NCBI GenBank assembly: GCA_964356495.1
Contig: CAYHHR010000003.1
Location: forward strand, 1-55,351
Source of the DNA: an uncultured Gammaproteobacteria bacterium
GTDB lineage: Bacteria; Patescibacteriota; Patescibacteriia; Magasanikbacterales; GWA2-37-8
Direction of reading: 5' to 3'
Length of the DNA: 55,351 bases
Shown: one piece after another, positions 8,781 through 35,837 of the stretch
How positions within the stretch are numbered: the stretch's first letter is position 1
Layout: the number at the start of each line of letters is the position of its first letter
Notes under the pieces: model-generated
The model's input: only the letters and a program-made list of their open reading frames with translations
Told to the model about the DNA's origin: nothing
Databases searched by the model: none
Translations under genes and position numbers: made by a program

Positions 8781-9722
8781 GTGATCATCGGACATCGCCA
8801 CATTTTGAACTTTTTTGAAACAGCCGCTCAGCGCGGCCAGTTGAGTCATGCGTATGGATTTATCGGCCCCCGCGGTATTGGCAAGCGCGCGGTCGCGTAT
8901 GAGATTGCCGCGCGACTGCTAAATGTTTCCGAAGATAAACTGGCGCGTAATCCCGATTTCATTTTGGTTCAGCGCGGCGAGGATGAGAAAACCGGCAAGT
9001 TAAAAAAGGAAATTACCGTTGCGGAGGCGCGCGAACTGAAGAAAAGCCTTCAGCATACCTCGTGGCAAAAAGGCAATCGGGTCATCGTCATTGACGGCGC
9101 CGAGTTTCTAAACTCAGAGTCCGGGAACGCGCTTCTGAAGTTGTTGGAGGAGCCGCCGGAGAGAATATTTTTTATTCTTCTGATTGAAAATGAAGGAGCG
9201 GTTTTGTCCACAATTCGTTCGCGTCTGCAGTTATTTTATTTTTCCTTGGTCAAGACACTGGAGATTTCGACGGCTTTGGAGTTGAGAGGCGTACCATCCG
9301 AACAGGCGGAAATTTACGCGCGTCGAGCGCATGGTCGGCCCGGTAGAGCGCTGTCATTCATGGAAAATGAAAATGCCGAACGTTATGATGACCTCTTAGA
9401 AACTTTTCAGAAATTAGTCGGCGCGCCGTTTTATAAAAAAATTCAGCTGATTGAAAAATTATACGGCGCCAAGGAAGACGGCGAACGGGGTCGTACTGAG
9501 TGGCAGGAAATTTTGGAGACCTGGATTTCATGGTTCCGCGATTGGCTTCTGAAGAAGCATGGCGCGGCGCAGTTTGCCGGCGAACCGAAGCTTTCCGCGG
9601 GAATTAGTTTTTCCAGCAGCGAACTGGTCAATATAATCGATAGTTTTCAGCGAACCAAGAAATTGCTCCACCAGAACGCGCACCCGCGGCTCGCGATTGA
9701 ATCCGCTTTATTAAAAATTTAA
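8781..9722 (+). CDS. holB: DNA polymerase III delta' subunit
   Basis: GTG start. 'GPRGIGKR' degenerate P-loop and 'GNALLKLLEEPP' clamp-loader motif. Confidence 0.8.
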   Translation: MIIGHRHILNFFETAAQRGQLSHAYGFIGPRGIGKRAVAYEIAARLLNVSEDKLARNPDFILVQRGEDEKTGKLKKEITVAEARELKKSLQHTSWQKGNRVIVIDGAEFLNSESGNALLKLLEEPPERIFFILLIENEGAVLSTIRSRLQLFYFSLVKTLEISTALELRGVPSEQAEIYARRAHGRPGRALSFMENENAERYDDLLETFQKLVGAPFYKKIQLIEKLYGAKEDGERGRTEWQEILETWISWFRDWLLKKHGAAQFAGEPKLSAGISFSSSELVNIIDSFQRTKKLLHQNAHPRLAIESALLKI

Positions 9723-18644: not shown

Positions 18645-18726
18645 GGGCAGATACCGAAGCGGTCAAACGGGGCTGACTGTAAATCAGCTGGCTACGCCTT
18701 CCTAGGTTCGAATCCTAGTCTGCCCA
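18645..18726 (+). tRNA. tRNA-Tyr (GUA), long variable arm, no encoded CCA
   Basis: Folds as a cloverleaf. Acceptor GGGCAGA/TCTGCCC, anticodon loop CTGTAAA, T-loop GGTTCGAATCC. Aligns arm-by-arm with E. coli tRNA-Tyr. Confidence 0.95.
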
Positions 18727-18734
18727 CATTGAAC

Positions 18735-18807
18735 GCCGTCTTAGCTCAGCTGGTAGAGCAACAGTTTTGTAAACTGTAGGTCCGGGGTTCAAATCCCCGA
18801 GACGGCT
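18735..18807 (+). tRNA. tRNA-Thr (UGU)
   Basis: Acceptor GCCGTCT/AGACGGC, anticodon stem ACAGT/ACTGT with loop TTTGTAA, T-arm CGGGG-TTCAAAT-CCCCG. Confidence 0.9.
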
Positions 18808-18821
18808 CAGAAAATTTTAAC

Positions 18822-18894
18822 GCCGATGTAGCTCAGATGGTAGAGCACGTCCATGGTAAGGACGGGGTCCGCGGTTCAATTCCGCGCATCGGCT
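18822..18894 (+). tRNA. tRNA-Thr (GGU)
   Basis: Acceptor GCCGATG/CATCGGC, anticodon stem CGTCC/GGACG with loop ATGGTAA, T-arm CGCGG-TTCAATT-CCGCG. Confidence 0.9.
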
Positions 18895-18902
18895 CAGGGT
18901 TT

Positions 18903-18931
18903 AAAAATTGAAAATTAAAAATTAAAAATTC
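18903..18931 (+). repeat. Heptamer array in the rpmG leader (AAAAATTG AAAATTA AAAATTA AAAATTC)
   Basis: Read directly. Lies immediately upstream of the rpmG start, and no Shine-Dalgarno is visible. Confidence 0.8.
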
Positions 18932-18938
18932 ACAATGT

Positions 18939-19094
18939 ATGTCACAAGACAACATGGTAAAATTGGAATGTTCGGTCTGCAAGCATATCAATTACTTCAG
19001 CACCAAGAACAAAAAGATCCTCAAGAACAGGCTGGAGCTCAGCAAGTTCTGCGACAACTGCAAAGCGCACACTGTCCACAAGGAAACGAAATAG
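18939..19094 (+). CDS. rpmG: 50S ribosomal protein L33 (51 aa; below the ORF-track size cut-off)
   Basis: Hand translation: MSQDNMVKLECSVCKHINYFSTKNKKILKNRLELSKFCDNCKAHTVHKETK. It has the CxxC...CxxC zinc ribbon and the 'KNRLEL.KFC..C..HT.H.E.K' L33 signature. Confidence 0.9.
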   Translation: MSQDNMVKLECSVCKHINYFSTKNKKILKNRLELSKFCDNCKAHTVHKETK

Positions 19095-19115
19095 TCAGGG
19101 ACACTAAGTCAAGCT

Positions 19116-19928
19116 GTGAAATATTATTTTACCGCTTTCTATAAAAGTTTCTACGATTCCGTATGGTTGAAAGCCACGCGGGGTTTTCCTGGCAAAGCCT
19201 GGAGTTACTTTTGTCTTTTTGTTTTCGTCGTCGCTCTCGCCGCGTTAGTGCCGATCGCGTTTGAACTTCGCCCGCTGGTAAAAGATTTTGGTCAAAATTT
19301 TTCGACCGGCGCGCCTGATTTCGAGGCGACTCTGAAAGGTGGAAAATTATCAGTGCGGAAGTTGGCTCAGCCGTTTGTCTATCGTTCTTCCGGAAATGAT
19401 TTTGTAGCGGTAGTGGACACGATCAGCACCAGTTCGGTGGCGTTGGAGCAGTATGTGACCAGCACTTACGCCGACTCTATACTTATCACCTCTGATCATG
19501 TCGAGTTTCGTGATGTCAGTACCGGCGAATCGAGAATTCAGAGTTGGAAAGATTTTCCGGAGTTCTCATTTTCGAAAAGCGAAGTTGTAGCGATGACAAA
19601 TCGTTTTGCCGAACCAATGAATTTGGCCGCCGCGATTTTGGTGATCTTTATCGGGCTCTATGTTGGATTTTTTGTCAGCAAGCTCTATACTATACTAATG
19701 GTTACACTATTGGTTTCGGTATTTGCTCGAATATACAGTCGCGCGGTGAAGTTTTGGGAGTTGTTCACGATTGGTCTCTATGCGGTTACCTTACCGAGCA
19801 TTATCGGCATCATCCTCACTTTGATCGGACTGGAATTTTCTTATGTGCAGTTTCTTGCCCTTCTGGCGTTTATGCTGGCGATGGTGTGGACAAAAGATGA
19901 GGCCAAAGTCGAAAGTCCAAAGTTATAG
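19116..19928 (+). CDS. DUF1189-like polytopic membrane protein
   Basis: GTG start. 'FYKSFYDSVWL' N-terminus and a C-terminal block of TM helices. Confidence 0.5.
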   Translation: MKYYFTAFYKSFYDSVWLKATRGFPGKAWSYFCLFVFVVALAALVPIAFELRPLVKDFGQNFSTGAPDFEATLKGGKLSVRKLAQPFVYRSSGNDFVAVVDTISTSSVALEQYVTSTYADSILITSDHVEFRDVSTGESRIQSWKDFPEFSFSKSEVVAMTNRFAEPMNLAAAILVIFIGLYVGFFVSKLYTILMVTLLVSVFARIYSRAVKFWELFTIGLYAVTLPSIIGIILTLIGLEFSYVQFLALLAFMLAMVWTKDEAKVESPKL

Positions 19929-19935
19929 AAAAAAT

Positions 19936-20007
19936 GGGCCTGTAGTTTCAATGGTAAAACTCTCGTCTCCAAAACGAGCGTTCTCGGTTCGAATCCGAGC
20001 GGGCCTG
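19936..20007 (+). tRNA. tRNA-Trp (CCA anticodon), no encoded 3' CCA
   Basis: Acceptor GGGCCTG/CGGGCCT (with G-U pairs), D-arm GTTT/AAAC, anticodon stem CTCGT/ACGAG with loop CTCCAAA, T-arm CTCGG-TTCGAAT-CCGAG. Confidence 0.85.
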
Positions 20008-20013
20008 CACTGT

Positions 20014-24438: not shown

Positions 24439-25254
24439 ATGCCAGAAAATTCATTTGAAGCAATCAAAAGGGTAGACGATAATGGAAGGGAATATTGGTC
24501 ATCGCGTGAATTGGCTAAGGTTCTAGAATATCCATATTATCGTAAATTTCTTAGTGTAATCGATAAGGCGAAAGTTGCTTGCGAAAATAGCGGCGGAGTT
24601 ATCCACAGCCATTTTGTCCATATGGACGAAATGGTTCTAATCGGGTCTGGTGCGGAAAGGCCCATTGATACAATGTGTCTTTCACGATATGCCTGTTATC
24701 TGATCGTTCAAAATTCTGATCCAACTAAAGTAATCGTAGCAAAAGGTCAAACATATTTCGCGATTCAAACGCGAAGACAAGAAAAAGCTGACAATCTGAT
24801 CGAAGATAATAATCGTATTTTTTTGCGTGAGGAAATGAAAAAGCACAACACGAGCTTGATGCAGACTGCGGCCATGGCCGGTGTTGAAAATTATGCGATT
24901 TTTCAAAATTATGGTTATAAAGGTTTGTATGGCGGGCTGACAATGCAGGATATTCATGTGAAAAAACATTTGACGAAATCGCAGAAAATTCTTGATCACA
25001 TGAACAGCGAGGAGTTGGCTGCCAATTTATTTCGCGCTACTCAAGCTGGTGCAAAAATAAAGCGGGAAAATATTAGAGGTCAAGTAGATGCAAATTTGGC
25101 ACATTACGAGGTCGGTCAAAAAGTTAGAAATACGATTGCAAATTTAGGTGGTACGATGCCAGAAGAATTACCGACCCCGGATGCGATAGGTAAAGCTCAA
25201 ACGAGAATAAAGAAATCAAGGCAAGTGAAGAAAATTGAGACTGGCAGAGAATAA
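24439..25254 (+). CDS. dinD: DNA-damage-inducible protein D (DinD)-like protein
   Basis: 'FE.IK......G.E.WSSRELAK.L.Y..YR.F..VI.KAK.ACENSG......HF......V.IGSGA.R......LSRYACYL.VQN.DP.K...A.GQTYFAIQTRRQE' matches my memory of E. coli DinD almost motif for motif. Confidence 0.75.
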   Translation: MPENSFEAIKRVDDNGREYWSSRELAKVLEYPYYRKFLSVIDKAKVACENSGGVIHSHFVHMDEMVLIGSGAERPIDTMCLSRYACYLIVQNSDPTKVIVAKGQTYFAIQTRRQEKADNLIEDNNRIFLREEMKKHNTSLMQTAAMAGVENYAIFQNYGYKGLYGGLTMQDIHVKKHLTKSQKILDHMNSEELAANLFRATQAGAKIKRENIRGQVDANLAHYEVGQKVRNTIANLGGTMPEELPTPDAIGKAQTRIKKSRQVKKIETGRE

Positions 25255-25263
25255 AAATCGCAT

Positions 25264-26022
25264 ATGAAATTAATCTCACTTAACACTTGGGGAGCTCGAG
25301 CAGGTCTGGATAATCTGCTCGATTTTTTTAAAAAACATCGCGATGCGGATATATTTTGTTTGCAGGAAATCTGGGATGGCGGCGAAGAGCGGATCGCGGG
25401 AGTAAATTTTAAAGGGGTTGATTGTAAGCAGGTCGAGCCGCGATTACTTAGAAAAATTCAAGACGTTCTGCCGGATCACGTCGTGTATTTCAGGCCGCAT
25501 TATTTTGACTTTTATGGTTTGGCGTTATTTGTGAAAAAAGATTTAAATATTATTGAGGAGGGGGAGTTGTTCGTTTATAAAGAACGCGGCTATTATTCAT
25601 CGGACGCGGTAGGAAATCATGCTCGTAATATTCAATACGTGAAGGTCGCCATTCCGCGTGGCATACGCGTCATTGTTAATTTCCACGGCCTGTGGAACGG
25701 CCAAGGAAAAGATGACTCGGCTGACCGCCTGCTTCAGTCTGATAATATTTTGCGTTTTCTTGCCGCCCTTCCTCACCCGGTCATTTTATGCGGAGATTTT
25801 AATCTGTTGCCTGAGACGGAAAGTATAAAAAAACTTGAGTCTTTTGGATTGCGGAATCTTATTAAAGTAAATAATATTGCTTCGACAAGAACCAGTTTTT
25901 ATAAAAAAGAACACCGATTTGCTGATTATACGTTTGTGAGCAAGGATATTAGCGTCGTCGATTTTAAAGTATTGCCGGATGAGGTATCGGACCATAATGC
26001 CATGCAGCTTAGTTTTGAATAA
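25264..26022 (+). CDS. Endonuclease/exonuclease/phosphatase (EEP) family protein
   Basis: 'LNTWG', 'DIFCLQE', 'CGDFN' and C-terminal 'SDHNA' motifs. Confidence 0.8.
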   Translation: MKLISLNTWGARAGLDNLLDFFKKHRDADIFCLQEIWDGGEERIAGVNFKGVDCKQVEPRLLRKIQDVLPDHVVYFRPHYFDFYGLALFVKKDLNIIEEGELFVYKERGYYSSDAVGNHARNIQYVKVAIPRGIRVIVNFHGLWNGQGKDDSADRLLQSDNILRFLAALPHPVILCGDFNLLPETESIKKLESFGLRNLIKVNNIASTRTSFYKKEHRFADYTFVSKDISVVDFKVLPDEVSDHNAMQLSFE

Positions 26023-29223: not shown

Positions 29224-30030
29224 ATGCAGAAATCATATTACGAAAAACCAAAATTTACTCTGTATCAGGCGGATTGCCTGAAGATTCTTGCTGAGCTCCC
29301 AGAAAATTCAGTGGATATGGTTTTTGCCGATCCACCATACCTGCTTTCAAATGGCGGTTTTTCTGTCCAAGCTGGAAAGCGTGTGAGTGTTAATAAGGGA
29401 GAATGGGACAAAAGCGGTGGATTAAAAAAGGATTTTGAATTTCATATTCAGTGGATACGAGCCGTTAGGCGCGTATTAAAGCCGAGTGGAACGATTTGGA
29501 TTAGTGGAACCTACCATTCAATTTACCAATGCGGTTTTGCACTTCAAGTAGCTGGATTTCATGTGCTTAATGATATTGCGTGGTTCAAACCAAACGCTTC
29601 GCCAAATTTAAGCTGTCGTTTTTTTACCGCAAGTCACGAAACTCTTATATGGGCCAGAAAAGACAAAAAAGCAAAACATATTTTTAATTATGACGCGATG
29701 AAAAATGGCACGTGGCCAGAGGACGCGTTAAAAAAACCCGGCCTTCAAATGCGTTCGGTATGGTCAATGGGAACACCTAAACCATTTGAAAAGAAATTTG
29801 GTAAGCACCCAACGCAAAAACCGGAGGCCTTATTAAAAAGAATTGTTTTAGCCAGTACGAATAGAGGGGATGTCATTCTTGATCCGTTTACCGGTAGTTC
29901 AACTACTGGAATGGCCGCCTATCTTTATGGTAGAAATTTTATTGGTATTGATATGGAGAAAAAATATCTCGATTTGTCTATCAAACGATTTGAGGAGCTA
30001 GATCGTAATTTGAAAAATAAGAAAACCTAA
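29224..30030 (+). CDS. Beta-class N6-adenine (or N4-cytosine) DNA methyltransferase, DpnA/M.MboI-B-like
   Basis: 'FADPPY' (motif IV) lies N-terminal to 'ILDPFTGSSTTG' (motif I). Adjacent to a DpnII-family endonuclease gene. Confidence 0.85.
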   Translation: MQKSYYEKPKFTLYQADCLKILAELPENSVDMVFADPPYLLSNGGFSVQAGKRVSVNKGEWDKSGGLKKDFEFHIQWIRAVRRVLKPSGTIWISGTYHSIYQCGFALQVAGFHVLNDIAWFKPNASPNLSCRFFTASHETLIWARKDKKAKHIFNYDAMKNGTWPEDALKKPGLQMRSVWSMGTPKPFEKKFGKHPTQKPEALLKRIVLASTNRGDVILDPFTGSSTTGMAAYLYGRNFIGIDMEKKYLDLSIKRFEELDRNLKNKKT

Positions 30031-30032
30031 GT

Positions 30033-30413
30033 ATGACAGCCTTAGCGTATATGCCAAGCTATGTTACCGAATGGACTGACAAATATTTTCATCAATCGGC
30101 TTTTGATGTTCCTGTAAATTATCCAAATAAGAAGGTGCTAAAATTTTTGGCTAGTTTTTCGAAACCAAAAAAGGTACGACTTTTTAGAGGGATAAATAAA
30201 TACAATAAAGATAACGGAGCGGTAGCTAGTTGGACATATAATAGGCAAATTGCAGAAGGATATGCAAAGGATGTCGGGGGAAAAATTATCGAAAAGGAAT
30301 TTTTGTTTAATCAAATATTGCTGGATACAACCTTATTAACAAAAAAGGAGAAACAACAGTTTGGGTATGATTATAAAATCGATGATAAAGAAGTGTTAAT
30401 ATTAGAAATATGA
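30033..30413 (+). CDS. Hypothetical 126-aa protein embedded between the M and R genes
   Basis: 3-nt gap after the methylase gene and ATGA overlap with the endonuclease gene. No HTH is evident. Weak R-S-E-like pattern (see findings). Confidence 0.55.
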   Translation: MTALAYMPSYVTEWTDKYFHQSAFDVPVNYPNKKVLKFLASFSKPKKVRLFRGINKYNKDNGAVASWTYNRQIAEGYAKDVGGKIIEKEFLFNQILLDTTLLTKKEKQQFGYDYKIDDKEVLILEI

Positions 30414-31330
30414 TTTTCTTACCATTTTATAAGGAAAAATTAGGATGTAAAAACGAAGATGATGTTTTTGATTACATTATCAGAAATTTAAAGCTGAGCA
30501 TTTTATTATGGTCGTATTTTGTAAATTGGAGCAAGGTTTTTGAAAATACAAGAAAAATTGAATTGGCATTAAATGTCTTAAATTACCTTATCGGAAAAAA
30601 AGATTTTGATACGGAGTTTAAAATTTTGGTTAAGGAACACCCGGAAGTAGTAAAAGTTATCCCAGCCTTAGTGGTTAGGGATGGGGCAAATACTAGCAAG
30701 TTTAAAATTTTAGTAGATTATAAGAATAAAAAATTGGTTCATGAGGATTATGATTTTACTAAAAAAGACTTTAACGATAAGGATATCGAAAGATGTCTAG
30801 TCTTTGTAAAAGAGACTGGTCTTAAAGATTTGATTATTTCACAAAAGATAAAAAACCTTGTTGATTACATGATCGGTGTAGAGGCCGGGCTGGACAGTAA
30901 TGGTCGAAAAAATCGAAGCGGTCATTCAATGGAGAATATAGTTGAGTTCTTTATAGCAGACATATGCAAGCAGAAGGATTATAAGTATTTAAAAGAAGCT
31001 ACTGCCGCAACAATTAAACAGGGATGGGGTTTTGATGTGCCAGTAGATAAATCGTCTCGCCGATATGATTATGTGGTGAATACTGGTAAGGAATTATTTA
31101 TTTTTGAAACTAATTTTTATAGTGGTGGCGGGTCGAAATTAAAGTCTACTGCTGGCGAATATCGTAATTTGTTTGATGTGTTGGGTGGTAAATATAAATT
31201 TATTTGGATCACTGATGGTATGGGCTGGAGAAGCACAGCTAAACCATTACGAGAAACCTTTAATCATAATGGCTATGTGATTAGTTTGGATATGATTGAG
31301 AATGGGGTGTTAGAGAGTGTTTTGGAATAA
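30410..31330 (+). CDS. Type II restriction endonuclease, DpnII/MboI family (GATC-type, predicted)
   Basis: 'NLVDYMIGVEAGLDSNGRKNRSGHSMENIV', 'FETNFYSGGGSKL' and 'FIWITDGMGW....PLRETF' match my recollection of R.DpnII ('NLVDYVTGVEVGMDTNGRKNRTG.AMENIV', 'EVNFYSGSGSKL', 'FMWITDGQGW'). Confidence 0.75.
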   Translation: MIFLPFYKEKLGCKNEDDVFDYIIRNLKLSILLWSYFVNWSKVFENTRKIELALNVLNYLIGKKDFDTEFKILVKEHPEVVKVIPALVVRDGANTSKFKILVDYKNKKLVHEDYDFTKKDFNDKDIERCLVFVKETGLKDLIISQKIKNLVDYMIGVEAGLDSNGRKNRSGHSMENIVEFFIADICKQKDYKYLKEATAATIKQGWGFDVPVDKSSRRYDYVVNTGKELFIFETNFYSGGGSKLKSTAGEYRNLFDVLGGKYKFIWITDGMGWRSTAKPLRETFNHNGYVISLDMIENGVLESVLE

Positions 31331-31512
31331 AATTGTTCTCTTTTCTTTTTGAAGTGAAATATTTACAGACAATAAAAGCAGAGCATGTTTTGAAACATGC
31401 AAAGCGAATGCATGAATCGTGGAATCCGTCATATTTATTCTACACAATTATATAGTTTCACATATATTCTCATTCGTCCGCCCCGCTTAGCGGGGACTCA
31501 CGCATCTCAAGT

Positions 31513-32193
31513 ATGAAAAAAGTCGCAGTGTTCGACATCGACGGAACAATTTTTCGTTCCAGCCTGCTCATAGAAATAACCGAAGCGCTGATCCAAAGCG
31601 GCATTTTTCCGTTATCGGCGCGGAAGGTTTATGCCAAATCGTACAAAAATTGGCTGGATAGGCGTGATTCTTATGAGAAATATATTGGCGACGTGATAAA
31701 ATCTTTTGAGAAAAATATCAAGGGTGTGGGACAGGCGGAGTTTTTGAAAATTGCCAAGAAGGCGGTTGCTTTTCATCAGAACCGTGTTTATCGTTATACG
31801 AGGGATCTGGTATCGGAACTTCGTAAGAAAAATTATTATTTACTTGCTATTTCAAAGTCGCCGCGCGAGGCGGTGGAGGAATTTTGTAAAAAGCTCGGAT
31901 TTGATAAAGTTTATGGTCTAGTTTATGAATCGGAAAATAAAAAATTTACAGGTAGGGCTCTGTATTGGGACTTGATGAAAGATAAGGCGAAGATTCTACG
32001 GCGCGCACTGGAGACAGAACATCTTACTTTAAAAGGGTCGGTGGGAGTCGGCGACTCCGAGAGCGATATACCATTTTTAAAAATGGTGGACCAGCCGGTT
32101 TGCTTTAATCCAAATAGTATATTATATCGTCGCGCCAAACGGATGGGATGGAAAATTGTGGTGGAAAGAAAGGATGTTAATTATTTTTTGTAA
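31513..32193 (+). CDS. HAD-superfamily hydrolase, subfamily IB (SerB-like)
   Basis: 'VFDIDGTIF' motif I, 'ISKSP' motif II and 'GVGDSESDIPFL' motif IV. Confidence 0.75.
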   Translation: MKKVAVFDIDGTIFRSSLLIEITEALIQSGIFPLSARKVYAKSYKNWLDRRDSYEKYIGDVIKSFEKNIKGVGQAEFLKIAKKAVAFHQNRVYRYTRDLVSELRKKNYYLLAISKSPREAVEEFCKKLGFDKVYGLVYESENKKFTGRALYWDLMKDKAKILRRALETEHLTLKGSVGVGDSESDIPFLKMVDQPVCFNPNSILYRRAKRMGWKIVVERKDVNYFL

Positions 32194-32226
32194 CATAGAT
32201 TTTAGAATTTAATTCGCAAAAATTTT

Positions 32227-32823
32227 ATGAAAACGAAGGTTCAAAAACAAAAATTTAACGATCATTTTGAGTTAAACGAAGAGCCGAGCAAGGATGATTG
32301 TTATTATGATGCTTTGGAATTATCGGGTGGTGGGAAAAAGGAAATTAAGGAAGCGTTAAGATTATTAAATATAGCCCGTGAAATGGACAAAGATTATGTT
32401 CAAACGTATATTGGTTTTATTTGCGTTTATAGCGCTATTGGTGATAAAAAGAAGATAGATGATGCGATTAAGATAGCTTATGAAAAAACCGTGAAAAAAT
32501 TTCCTAAATGGCCAAAACAAATGAAGTGGGGATGGTTGGAAAATCGCGCATATATGCGGGCAATTCAATATATGGGAGATTTATATTGGGACAATGGGGA
32601 AATCGAGAAGGCGATTGAGCTATTTCGACTTTTGTTGAAATTGAACCCGGGCGATAATCAAGGAGTAAGATATGAAATTGCGGCGTTGTATGCCGGTTTG
32701 AGCGGCAAGGATGTTAATAGGATGACGGACGAAGGAAATGAAAAGCAGGATTGGAGTGAACAAGATAATCTTGTTTACGAGCAAAATAAAAAACACAAAT
32801 TTTGGCAAGAGCTAAGCTATTAA
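32227..32823 (+). CDS. TPR-repeat protein
   Basis: 'GEIEKAIELFRLLLKLNPGDNQGVRYEIAALY' is TPR-like. Confidence 0.55.
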   Translation: MKTKVQKQKFNDHFELNEEPSKDDCYYDALELSGGGKKEIKEALRLLNIAREMDKDYVQTYIGFICVYSAIGDKKKIDDAIKIAYEKTVKKFPKWPKQMKWGWLENRAYMRAIQYMGDLYWDNGEIEKAIELFRLLLKLNPGDNQGVRYEIAALYAGLSGKDVNRMTDEGNEKQDWSEQDNLVYEQNKKHKFWQELSY

Positions 32824-32883
32824 ATTTAGCTCGTGACACTTTCTTGTCAATATTTAAGGCATTAAGGAACTGTGGACAAACTG

Positions 32884-32912
32884 TTGACAACTTTTTTTAT
32901 TTTATGTACAAT
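32884..32912 (+). promoter_or_regulatory. Sigma70-like promoter (TTGACA-17-TACAAT)
   Basis: TTGACA at 32884-32889 and TACAAT at 32907-32912. Flanked by TTGTCAA (32852) and TTGACAA inverted copies. Confidence 0.6.
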
Positions 32913-32942
32913 ATTGGTGTGTTAAATTAATTAAACCAAAGT

Positions 32943-33701
32943 ATGCACCAAATTCAGGATAAAATTCTTCAGTTAATGGAGACTGGAAATCTTGGAAAGC
33001 TGACTTTGCGGGAAATTGGCGCGTCAATTGGTGAGCCGGATAAACCACAAAAAATAAAGCATCATTTGGATCAACTGGTCAAAAAAGGACTAGTTAGGGT
33101 TGATAAAGATAATAAGAACATCGAACGCGTGCCAAGTGGGCGCGTAAAAAATAGCAGTCTGGTGGCTGTGCCAATTTTTGGTTCTGCCAACTGCGGACAG
33201 GCAGCTTGTTTCGATGAACAAAATTTTGAAGGAAACCTGTATATATCTGATCGGTTGTTAAACAAAGTTCGCAATGTAAAAAATATCTTTGCGGTGAAAG
33301 CGGTCGGGTCTTCGATGAATCGCGCTTCCATTGATGGAAAAAATATTTCTGAAGGCGACTATGTTATTATTGATAAGGGCTGTCCGATCCCGCAGAATGG
33401 CGATTATGTTTTGTCCGTTATTGATGGGTTGGTAAATATAAAGAGGTTTTATAAAGATCAGAATAATCATCAAATTATTTTGATGTCAGAATCAAGCCAA
33501 AATTTGGCTCCTATTTATATTCACGAGGAGGATTTTGCAGATTACATGGTGAACGGCAAAGTCATCCAGATAATGAAACATCCTAATGAAGAGCAAATGT
33601 GGCAGGATGCCGCCGGCGAGGATGTTTTGAAGGATTTAGGTCCAATCTCCAAAACAGAATATGATTATTATGAAAATCTATGCTCGCAAAAGGTGAAGTA
33701 A
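32943..33701 (+). CDS. LexA-like repressor / S24 self-cleaving peptidase with a 41-aa acidic C-terminal extension
   Basis: N-terminal wHTH ('LTLREIGASIG....KIKHHLDQLVKKGLV'). 'VPIFGSANCGQAA' cleavage-loop region. 'GSSM' (Ser124) and 'NIKR' (Lys167). 252 aa. Confidence 0.75.
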   Translation: MHQIQDKILQLMETGNLGKLTLREIGASIGEPDKPQKIKHHLDQLVKKGLVRVDKDNKNIERVPSGRVKNSSLVAVPIFGSANCGQAACFDEQNFEGNLYISDRLLNKVRNVKNIFAVKAVGSSMNRASIDGKNISEGDYVIIDKGCPIPQNGDYVLSVIDGLVNIKRFYKDQNNHQIILMSESSQNLAPIYIHEEDFADYMVNGKVIQIMKHPNEEQMWQDAAGEDVLKDLGPISKTEYDYYENLCSQKVK

Positions 33702-34033
33702 AGTGTGGCGATATACTTTGGACGCAATTCAATCAGAGTGTCGGACACGAGTTTCAGGATAAACGCCCCGCGTTGGTTATTCAGTCAAATCGGCAATTGG
33801 CAAAATCAAATTTAGCTACCGTAATACCTATCACCTCAAATATCTCAAATAAGACGGCTGATGACATACATATCAAACCGGACATAGTAAATAATTTAAG
33901 ATACGATTCCGTCATTAAAGTCTATGATATTATTTCGTGTGATTATCAAAGATTTTTCGGAAAGATTGGTACTGTTGATGACGGTGTGATGGAAAAGATT
34001 AAAGTATATTTGAAGCGTCATTTTAATATTTGA
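33680..34033 (+). CDS. mazF: MazF/PemK-family toxin (mRNA interferase)
   Basis: '[28 protein letters not shown]' and 'ATVIPITS' motifs. The start overlaps the upstream gene by 22 nt. Confidence 0.8.
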
Positions 34034-35837
34034 CCCGCCTCAGCTCCGCGATTACCGCTCGGATTTCTCCGTAGCTTACACTCTCGCCCAGCGTTTCCTT
34101 CAGAGGCGATAGGGGGTAGGAACCCAAGCTTCGCACGACGTTCGTAATTCGCGGAATTTTTGCCGCGGGGACAAGGTCGGTCACGTTCAGTTCGCCGGTT
34201 TCGACGTAGAAGGCCAGGTGAGATTCGATGGTGCTAGCGGCGAGATCGCGTAGCGCGGCGATCTGCGGTATTGTTTTTCCAAGTTTAAAAAAATCAAAAG
34301 AAACGGTTTTGGTGTCAGTTTCATGTTCGCGTTTTCCTCGGCGTTCGCGCTTCGGAATTTTTTCGGATATTTTGGAGGATAGACCGCGCACCGCGGAGTA
34401 GGACCGGATCGCGTTTAGAAAAAGCTGACCATATTTCGCGAGCTTAACGTCGCCGAAGCCGGAAATCTTCCTCATTTCGATGGCGCTCTGCGGCAGGTAG
34501 GTGGCAAGCTCGAGCAGAGTGGCGTCGGAGAAAATAATATAGGCCGGAACATTTTCCTCGCGCGCGAGGCGGTTGCGGAGATTTTTCAGTTCGGAGAATA
34601 AATCTTTTTCGTAGGCTTTCTCCGTCAGCGCTACTTCCTTCTTCGGCAGACATATATCGCAACTCGCGCAGGCGCCATCGTGCGCTTCGCCGAAATAATT
34701 TAGGATAATTTTTCGCCGGCAGGTTTTGGCTTCGCATAGGCCGGCCATCTGGCTAAGCTTATTTAGCATGATGCGGGACTGTTCGGGATTCCCCTCGACC
34801 CGCGCGAATTGTTGGAGTTTGAAGACATCGCCGGTGCTGTAATACAGAAGCGCTTCACTCGGTAGTCCGTCGCGTCCGGCGCGGCCGGTTTCCTGGTAGT
34901 AGCCCTCGATATTTTTGGGGAGGTCGGCGTGGATGACGAAGCGGACGTTGGATTTGTTTATCCCCATGCCGAAGGCGATCGTCGCGACGATAATTTTTAC
35001 ATCGTCTCTCAGGAACAGTTCTTGATGCTTCTGCCGCAGTTCGCCGGTTAGGCCGGCATGGTAGGGTTTCGCCGAGAAACCGTCCTCTGCCAATTTGCCG
35101 GCCAGCTTCTCGGCTGAAGCGCGCGACAGGACATAAATTATGCCGGATTCATCGCGGCGACGATCGAGGTAGGCGGTGAGCCGGTCGTACATTCCCTTTT
35201 TGGGTTCGATAAAATAATTAATGTTTGGGCGGTTGAAGCTCGACACAAACACGGCGGGATTTTTCAGCTGTAATTTATTTAGGATATCTTCGCGCGTCAG
35301 TTTGTCGGCCGTGGCGGTAAGGGCGATCACCGGCACAGTTGGGAATTCTTTTTTGAGGGACGATAACATCCGATACTCCGGCCGGAAATCATGCCCCCAA
35401 TGTGAGATGCAGTGCGCTTCATCGATCGCGAATAGCGAAATGTTTACCTTTTTTAGAAAAGAAATAAATTGCTGGTCGGCGTGGTAGAGTTTTTCCGGCG
35501 CGACATAAAGAAATTTTAGTTCGCCGCGGTTGAGTTCGCGAAAAATTGTTTCGCGTTCCTCGGCAGTCAACGAGGAATTCAGATAGGCTGCTTTTATCCC
35601 GTTGATGCGAAGCGCGTCCACTTGATCCTTCATGAGGGCGATGAGCGGCGAGACTACTACTGTCAGCCCGCTCTGCATAATCCCCGGGATCTGATAACAC
35701 AGCGACTTCCCGCCGCCAGTCGGCAACAGCGCAAACGCATCCTGCCCCCTCAAAACCGTCTCAATGATTTTTTCCTGCTCAAATCGAAAGGAATCATAAC
35801 CGAATTTCGTTTTTAGAATTTGAAGCGCGGTAGTCAT
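34023..35837 (-). CDS. recQ: ATP-dependent DNA helicase RecQ
   Basis: 'FGYDSFR..Q..II', '[15 protein letters not shown]', '[15 protein letters not shown]', zinc-binding 'C....C..CD.C', and a C-terminal HRDC ('[11 protein letters not shown]'). Confidence 0.95.

Follow-up and report, generated by a model that had tools for sequence, protein, structure and literature searches.

A LexA-like protein with a conserved C-terminal tail is paired with a MazF-family toxin in Patescibacteria

Results

A LexA-like gene overlaps a MazF-family toxin gene

The window analyzed here is the whole of contig CAYHHR010000003.1 (assembly GCA_964356495.1), 55,351 nt read on the forward strand, whose source is labeled an uncultured Gammaproteobacteria bacterium and is placed by GTDB in the Patescibacteriota (Patescibacteriia; Magasanikbacterales; GWA2-37-8). 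A gene at 32943..33701 (+) encodes a 252-amino-acid (aa) LexA-like protein, recognized by profile and fold matches, which we propose to be an antitoxin and autorepressor. The open reading frame (ORF) calls place the last 22 nt of this gene (33680..33701, +) over the start of a second gene (33680..34033, +), and this overlap implies a probable translational coupling of the two. The second gene encodes a 117-aa endoribonuclease toxin of the PemK/MazF family, identified by the PemK_toxin profile (E = 5e-22) and by a structure match, the nearest solved structure being that of B. subtilis EndoA/MazF (4MDX). In the alignment with the B. subtilis protein, Arg29 (33764-33766) and Thr52 (33833-33835) of the window MazF occupy the catalytic-equivalent positions, which we take to be Arg25 and Thr48 of EndoA/MazF, and each of the two residues is kept in 46 of the 47 S24-paired MazFs over which conservation was scored. 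Neither the ORFs of the window nor the profile search gave a MazE, AbrB, RHH or Phd-type ORF flanking the pair.

The Pfam Peptidase_S24 profile matched the LexA-like protein over aa 77-207 (E = 6e-14), and the Pfam LexA_DNA_bind profile matched it weakly (E = 0.035; 14.3 bits, under the cut-off of 23.7 bits). Pfam and NCBIfam gave S24 and LexA matches only for this protein, with no MazE/AbrB, RHH or Phd/YefM-type antitoxin among them. An AlphaFold2 model built on 120 homologues (mean predicted local distance difference test score, pLDDT, 79.6) comprises a winged helix (aa 1-62), a cleavage-site strand (aa 73-83), an S24 β-core (aa 95-211) and, beyond the core, two added helices (aa 216-231 and 237-251). 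Its top folds in the PDB by Foldseek were full-length LexA structures, 3JSO, 3K2Z and 1JHH (E ~ 1e-9, ~220 columns). The predicted winged-helix DNA-binding domain (32943..33128, +) is supported by the modeled secondary structure, by conservation and by Foldseek, and contains the recognition-helix region ‘PQKIKHHL’, which is near-invariant in tailed and tail-less members of the family alike (see below); the S24 peptidase core (33225..33575, +) is supported by Pfam, an alignment with UmuD’, conservation and the model.

Residue conservation, scored over the same number of homologues (120), was complete at the positions that matter for self-cleavage in LexA-type proteins. The predicted cleavage site Cys84-Gly85 (33192..33197, +), within ‘GSANCG’, and the dyad residues Ser124 (33312-33314, +), within ‘GSSM’, and Lys167 (33441-33443, +), within ‘NIKR’, were invariant, and their codons in the window were checked. 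The 252-aa protein thus looks cleavage-competent, as judged from its residues. A preliminary description of the window, made from the letters and ORFs alone, had read this product as a LexA-type protein with an N-terminal winged helix, a loop at the position of the LexA cleavage site and a Ser124/Lys167 dyad, overlapping by 22 nt a clear PemK/MazF-fold gene with no conventional antitoxin ORF on either side; the profiles, the model, Foldseek, the ORF calls and the conservation bear out each of these points, the LexA_DNA_bind match being weak. In public annotation, the homologues are called ‘S24 family peptidase’, ‘repressor LexA’ or ‘hypothetical protein’.

A C-terminal tail lies beyond the S24 fold

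The LexA-like protein ends in a 40-aa tail (aa 213-252; 33579..33698, +), made up largely of the two added helices of the model, which we propose to be the MazF-neutralizing element. Among plasmid records, the protein is matched best by annotated lexA genes, with 26-29% identity over aa 2-213, and the tailed architecture is absent from plasmid and phage records, which hold only ordinary lexA genes ending at residue 212-213. Since the UmuD’ alignment of the S24 core stops at Lys212 and the plasmid and phage lexA matches stop at 212-213, the tail appears to be a true addition to the S24 fold. The family consensus of the tail is PDExxx(W/F)xDAxxxD(I/V)LKDLGP(I/M)SKEEYDYYxNL; the tail in the window contains nine Asp/Glu and four Lys/Arg residues, and over 47 S24-MazF pairs the mean net charge is -3.7 for the tail and +2.5 for the partner MazF.

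The tail and MazF occur together across Patescibacteria

Hundreds of relatives of the LexA-like protein were found, all in assemblies of Patescibacteria (the candidate phyla radiation, CPR), and the best 120 of them (235-268 aa) cover 93-100% of the query, tail included. The first six locus look-ups, spanning 82-50% identity and unrelated flanks, all showed an S24 gene followed by a PemK gene, and a look-up begun from a MazF homologue likewise gave an S24 gene upstream. The family has two forms, a tailed one of ~245-253 aa and a tail-less one of ~208-220 aa that ends in ‘...VIQVIKKPKF’.

We then counted both features in a census of loci drawn from scans of genome and metagenome collections, in which the unit was a distinct protein whose ORF was complete and followed by 330 nt or more of readable DNA (n = 130), ORFs were called locally, and hidden Markov models of our own were built for MazF and for the tail. 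Tail and MazF were both present in 61 loci and both absent from 66; three loci (L025, L112 and L118) carried an intact tail without MazF, and none carried MazF without the tail (Fisher’s exact test, p = 5.6e-34). MazF is therefore found downstream of 61/64 tailed proteins versus 0/66 tail-less ones, and the neighborhoods in which the pairing recurs are varied. The S24/MazF junction was an ATGA overlap (-4) in 44 loci and a -22 overlap, as in the window, in seven, 51 in total, so that the two are conserved, co-oriented and usually overlapping partner genes across loci. In Patescibacteria, the S24 and MazF genes form a conserved module of two genes.

In a neighbor-joining tree of the S24 family, computed from the core only (aa 1-212), the tailed proteins form essentially one clade. 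Nested in it is a ‘KYGKPI’ subclade (L048, L065, L079 and L156) that has lost MazF and, with it, the tail’s distal ‘SKEEYDYYxNL’ helix; the sequence there has degenerated to ‘...LKYGKPIxxVDxxKKKK’. The asymmetry of these patterns, in which the toxin never occurs without the tail and the tail sometimes occurs without the toxin, fits toxin-antitoxin logic. Over the 47 S24-MazF pairs, tail distances and MazF distances also covaried when the distances of the S24 core were taken into account (partial Mantel r = 0.41, permutation p ≤ 0.0005). When the identities of tail and MazF to those of L182 were compared by rank, no significant correlation emerged (rho = 0.18); for covariation, the informative results are the top hits and the partial Mantel test alone.

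The tail is carried by a second scaffold and by stand-alone proteins

The same tail was found on an unrelated type of protein in locus L182, where an ORF at L182:165-995 combines an Xre-type helix-turn-helix domain (HTH_3) with SocA_Panacea (PF13274), a domain that gave no match in the 252-aa protein of the window, and ends in the tail motif ‘...MQDAAGSDSLKDLGEQSKEDYDYYMSL’. A MazF gene (P0148, L182:1000-1329) lies 4 nt downstream, followed by a type IIG/ISP restriction-modification gene. Compared with the S24-paired locus L003, the MazF of L182 is 70% identical and the tail 58% identical; P0170 is a second Panacea protein with the tail (a fragment). Because the same tail stands on a Panacea scaffold beside a MazF 70% identical to an S24-paired one, the tail and MazF seem to move as a cassette between antitoxin scaffolds. 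One tail element is thus found on S24 scaffolds (61 loci) and on an HTH_3/SocA_Panacea scaffold, paired with MazF on both.

Four comparative grounds therefore tie the tail to MazF, namely co-occurrence in the census, joint loss, the Panacea scaffold and the covariation of distances, and because the tail tracks MazF in all four, it is very probably the MazF-neutralizing element. The preliminary description had proposed that an acidic, aromatic tail of the MazE kind is the neutralizing module; the assignment to MazF holds up on these grounds, whereas the likeness to a loose MazE-type acidic peptide does not, the tail being instead a motif of strong conservation with two predicted helices.

When the 40-aa tail was the query of an exhaustive search, stand-alone proteins of 35-66 aa from Patescibacteria (P0150-P0192) were also returned, each with a start codon of its own, an N-terminus that is short and variable, and the complete motif WQDAAGxDxLKxLGPISKEEYDYYxNL. 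We read four distinct contexts of these. At L183:479-646, a MazE/AbrB-like ORF of 48 aa and a RhuM gene come after the stand-alone tail; at L184:780-917, it is preceded by a 117-aa ORF; at L185:2001-2150 (representing L185-190), it lies upstream of ruvB with an S24-core remnant ~1 kb upstream; and at L191:2501-2656, a helicase gene precedes it. These proteins could be orphan trans-acting anti-MazF factors, leftovers of disrupted S24-tail genes, or a sign of another partner.

The module has a predicted promoter with phased repeats

A predicted sigma-70-type promoter (TTGACA, 17-nt spacer, TACAAT; 32884..32912, +), with 11 of 12 consensus matches the best in the region, ends 30 nt upstream of the ATG of the LexA-like gene. 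An 11-nt tandem repeat (AACTGTGGACA / AACTGTTGACA; 32868..32889, +), whose second copy contains the -35 hexamer, is a putative operator, and TTGTCAA, an inverted copy of the -35 element located 34 nt upstream of the hexamer (32844..32850, +), is a putative operator half-site. TGTCAA is found upstream in 57 of the 61 tailed homologues, its distance from the -35 TTGACA changing by increments of about 9-11 bp, and the layout TGTGGA(C/T)AA-N4-TTGACAA is common to the window and its close homologues. Because the recognition-helix region is near-invariant and repeats are conserved at the -35 element, autoregulation through TGTCAA-type repeats is a reasonable, sequence-based inference.

The 9-mer TGTGGAYAA, which resembles a DnaA box, is over-represented in the window (five found, 0.66 expected), at 9204, 19885, 24599, 29004 and 32871; those other than the site of the module are mostly inside genes. 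Upstream of tail-less S24 genes, TGTGGATAA was seen in 19 of 51 cases (loci within L047-L091), often accompanied by the inverted repeats TTTTCTAG/CTAGAAAA.

The module lies in a variable, low-GC context

Downstream of MazF, recQ (34023-35837, -) is convergent and overlaps its 3’ end by 11 nt (34023-34033), an arrangement that leaves no space for an intergenic terminator between them. On the other side lies a DpnII-type restriction-modification system (29224-31330), recognized by profile matches, with an N6/N4 methylase gene (29224-30030) and a DpnII endonuclease gene (30410-31330); a 126-aa ORF (30033-30413) sits between the two and, by its coordinates, overlaps the endonuclease gene. The GC content of ~30000-34000 is 31-40%, and that of the recQ side (34000-35500) is 51-54%. 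The low-GC block holds most of the restriction-modification system and the HAD, TPR, S24 and MazF genes, and this step suggests an acquired island. Further upstream, a Bro-N (DinD-like) gene (24439-25254), which matches the PADLOC candidate PDC-S13 (E = 2.6e-107), is directly followed by an EEP-family nuclease gene (25264-26022). The convergent 3’ end of recQ and the nearby DinD-like and EEP nuclease genes had all been named in the preliminary description and are confirmed at these positions. A tRNA cluster (18645-20008; Tyr-GTA, Thr-TGT, Thr-GGT and Trp-CCA) lies upstream of the accessory region.

In other loci, restriction-modification genes neighbor the module in L008 and L009 (type IIG, MmeI-like), in L182 (Eco57I/type ISP-like) and in L010 (Dam-like methylase), and Bro-N, KilA-N or RhuM-like genes come after S24(-MazF) in L008, L010, L025, L048, L065 and L079. 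Beside the tail-less relatives, an MscL-like mechanosensitive channel gene, assigned from sequence only, is next in 17 of 48 loci (e.g. L047, L053, L061 and L083-L085). The tail-less relatives have a stable chromosomal context, and the context of the tailed ones is variable and often beside restriction-modification genes. The module appears to be a mobile offshoot of a tail-less LexA-like regulator that Patescibacteria carry on the chromosome. A phage origin is unsupported, as 2.9 million viral contigs yielded only six weak relatives, none of them tailed.

Discussion

A proposed type II toxin-antitoxin operon with a LexA-like antitoxin

We interpret the pair as a two-gene type II toxin-antitoxin operon whose antitoxin is a LexA-type repressor with a grafted C-terminal tail, a reading to which we assign a probability of roughly 0.65. 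The acidic, aromatic tail of ~40 aa would bind and neutralize the co-translated MazF, as the comparative genomics suggests, and the winged helix would repress the operon from the TGTCAA-type repeats overlapping the -35 box, as the conserved sites suggest. Given its conserved catalytic and cleavage residues, the S24 module, an autopeptidase-dimerization domain, would make this antitoxin self-cleavable, with RecA on single-stranded DNA as the probable stimulus by analogy. Cleavage at Cys84-Gly85 would remove the DNA-binding domain and derepress the operon; if, as in analogous proteins, the tail-bearing C-terminal fragment were then degraded after exposure of a degron, MazF would be freed, which would tie growth arrest to damaged DNA or to attack by phage. 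Autocleavage is known to expose degrons in LexA and LexA-like proteins, including, in HdiR, an N-degron on the C-terminal fragment (PMC5742171).

The module shares with MazEF, PemIK and EndoAI-EndoA (B. subtilis YdcDE) a toxin of the PemK/MazF fold with the catalytic Arg and Thr positions, an upstream overlapping partner gene with a DNA-binding domain suited to autoregulation, and a presumed neutralizing element that is C-terminal, acidic and aromatic. Unlike in these systems, the partner is not of the AbrB/SpoVT, RHH or Phd type but has a 252-aa LexA architecture with an intact S24 autopeptidase. With LexA, HdiR, IrvR, CI and UmuD, the partner has in common the combination of a (here predicted) winged helix and an S24 domain, LexA as the top fold match, and the invariant Cys-Gly and Ser/Lys residues, a Cys-Gly pair at the predicted cleavage site being the state in UmuD; like LexA-type regulators, it probably represses its own promoter. 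It differs from LexA in the 40-aa tail, in a toxin gene that is co-transcribed with it, and in a putative operator of TGTCAA repeats. LexA boxes are CTGT-N8-ACAG in E. coli and GAAC-N4-GTTC in Gram-positive bacteria, and the repeats of the module differ from both.

Toxins have been linked to LexA and DNA damage before, in the SOS-regulated systems tisB/istR, dinJ-yafQ, yafNO and Caulobacter higBA. There, the operon has an antitoxin of its own and is repressed by a separate LexA encoded on the chromosome, whereas in the module the role of antitoxin appears to fall to the LexA-like protein itself. In its modular build, the module resembles the NetFlax antitoxins, in which ‘linear neutralization’ is achieved by exchangeable terminal elements on antitoxin scaffolds, such as the two-helix Phd-C on Panacea (Ernits et al. 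2023, PMC10440598); the elements carried by Panacea (PanA) antitoxins there include Phd-C, ZBD and PAD1. As in NetFlax, a short terminal element that apparently carries the toxin specificity is found on several supports, here the S24/LexA-like protein, the Xre-HTH and Panacea protein, and stand-alone. Unlike the NetFlax antitoxins, the scaffold here would be a self-cleaving repressor, and the tail motif is not among the elements named there; the terms ‘S24’ and ‘LexA’ are absent from the main text of that paper. The preliminary description knew of no characterized MazF partner with this architecture, and our literature search, which did not take in the 2017 paper on the SOS network of Patescibacteria (Sanchez-Osuna et al.), likewise found no S24/LexA-type MazF antitoxin described.

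Evidence against and alternative explanations

Several observations weigh against the toxin-antitoxin reading or parts of it. The TIGR00498 lexA profile gives the 252-aa protein 66 bits over aa 21-212, and because this is below the equivalog cut-off of 110.95 bits, LexA-like, and not LexA, would be its proper name. The 61/0 contingency of the census reflects about one or two evolutionary events followed by retention, not 61 independent trials, because the tailed proteins form essentially one clade. A tail profile searched against PDB sequences and the tail searched against Pfam showed no detectable similarity to MazE, PemI or Kis; the matches were at chance level (a cytochrome b5-like protein, eL30 and APOC4), and we rejected homology of the tail to MazE. 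In a regulon search covering the 55-kb window as the only part of the genome, no second TGTCAA...TTGACA pair was found besides that of the module’s own promoter, and no wider SOS-type regulon, such as would be expected of LexA, is visible within the window. The tail would stay on the S24 core after cleavage at Cys84-Gly85, so that toxin release is no automatic consequence of self-cleavage and would need later proteolysis of the C-terminal fragment. Finally, no MazF is adjacent to the stand-alone tail in any of the four contexts that we read (L183, L184, L185-190 and L191), and the tail motif may therefore have a different partner, or one in addition to MazF; it is mainly for this reason that our confidence is not higher.

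The stand-alone tails, conserved without an adjacent MazF upstream of ruvB (L185-190) and in L191, L183 and L184, together with the absence of similarity to known MazF antitoxins, would suit an explanation in which the link is transcriptional only: the LexA-like protein would merely repress a damage-inducible MazF gene, the tail would serve in oligomerization, as a degron or in binding another cellular partner, and MazF would be tolerated or neutralized otherwise. We consider this improbable, since MazF never occurs without an upstream tail-bearing protein (0/66 beside tail-less proteins, and the Panacea-paired MazF follows a tailed protein too), the distal tail and MazF were lost together, and the overlapping ATGA and -22 junctions are typical of toxin-antitoxin pairs. 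Moreover, the loci looked up contain no other conserved small ORF, their flanks differing everywhere, and with its catalytic residues intact, an un-neutralized MazF would be costly. The covariation of tail and MazF is equally compatible with a domesticated MazF, its toxicity no longer the main function, that acts as a tail-bound co-repressor or modulator, bridging dimers of the LexA-like protein on the TGTCAA repeats or tuning its self-cleavage; the pair would then be a regulatory complex and not a module for addiction or abortive infection. The multiple putative half-sites, phased at roughly 11 bp, suit such higher-order complexes, and co-repression by the toxin is a feature of classical type II systems. 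Retention of the catalytic Arg and Thr in 46/47 MazFs argues for retained RNase activity, however, and the contexts are variable, accessory and rich in restriction-modification genes, as for mobile toxin-antitoxin and defense genes, so that we regard this explanation as very doubtful. That an ordinary lexA and an orphan mazF are neighbors by chance is practically negligible as an explanation, as it is refuted by the census, in which 61 distinct homologous loci with differing flanks carry the pair.

An alternative that is compatible with the toxin-antitoxin operon concerns its use: the module would be an abortive-infection or other defense device, and not a chromosomal SOS checkpoint, and its LexA-like sensor would free MazF when it answers phage-induced DNA damage or RecA activation or is the target of a phage anti-repressor. 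Restriction-modification genes near the module in the window and in L008, L009, L182 and L010, its position in a low-GC island, and the Bro-N genes beside several loci, that of the window matching PDC-S13, speak for this role. PADLOC, on the other hand, has no defense-system model that matches the S24-MazF pair, and the viral contigs hold just the six weak tail-less relatives; taken together, such a defense role seems rather unlikely.

For the toxin-antitoxin operon itself, gating of toxin release by self-cleavage, as raised in the preliminary description, is plausible by analogy with LexA and HdiR, though in our estimate it falls short of an even chance. More tentatively, we suggest that the module could represent the first case of an autoproteolytic antitoxin in a type II system, in which a RecA nucleoprotein filament or another cue would trigger cleavage at Cys84-Gly85, degrons would be exposed, the tail fragment destroyed and MazF released, making a damage- or phage-induced translation checkpoint in the genome-reduced Patescibacteria.

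Implications

The physiological activation of type II toxins has long been contested; antitoxin loss is mostly put down to the Lon or Clp proteases, whose triggers are unclear. In the present module, the antitoxin scaffold would be a sensor with a well-understood switch, LexA-type self-cleavage, which is normally stimulated by RecA on single-stranded DNA, and if the tail neutralizes MazF, the wiring is directly testable and genetically separable. The principle of exchangeable neutralizing elements would be extended to a new class of scaffold and by a new proposed anti-MazF motif of 35-40 aa. The module is a widespread accessory element, present at hundreds of loci in the poorly understood Patescibacteria, and through its wiring, the release of the toxin could be tied directly to a signal of DNA damage. 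If this is true, the system would carry its own molecularly defined trigger and might serve these bacteria as a stand-in for SulA-type arrest or as an abortive-infection switch.

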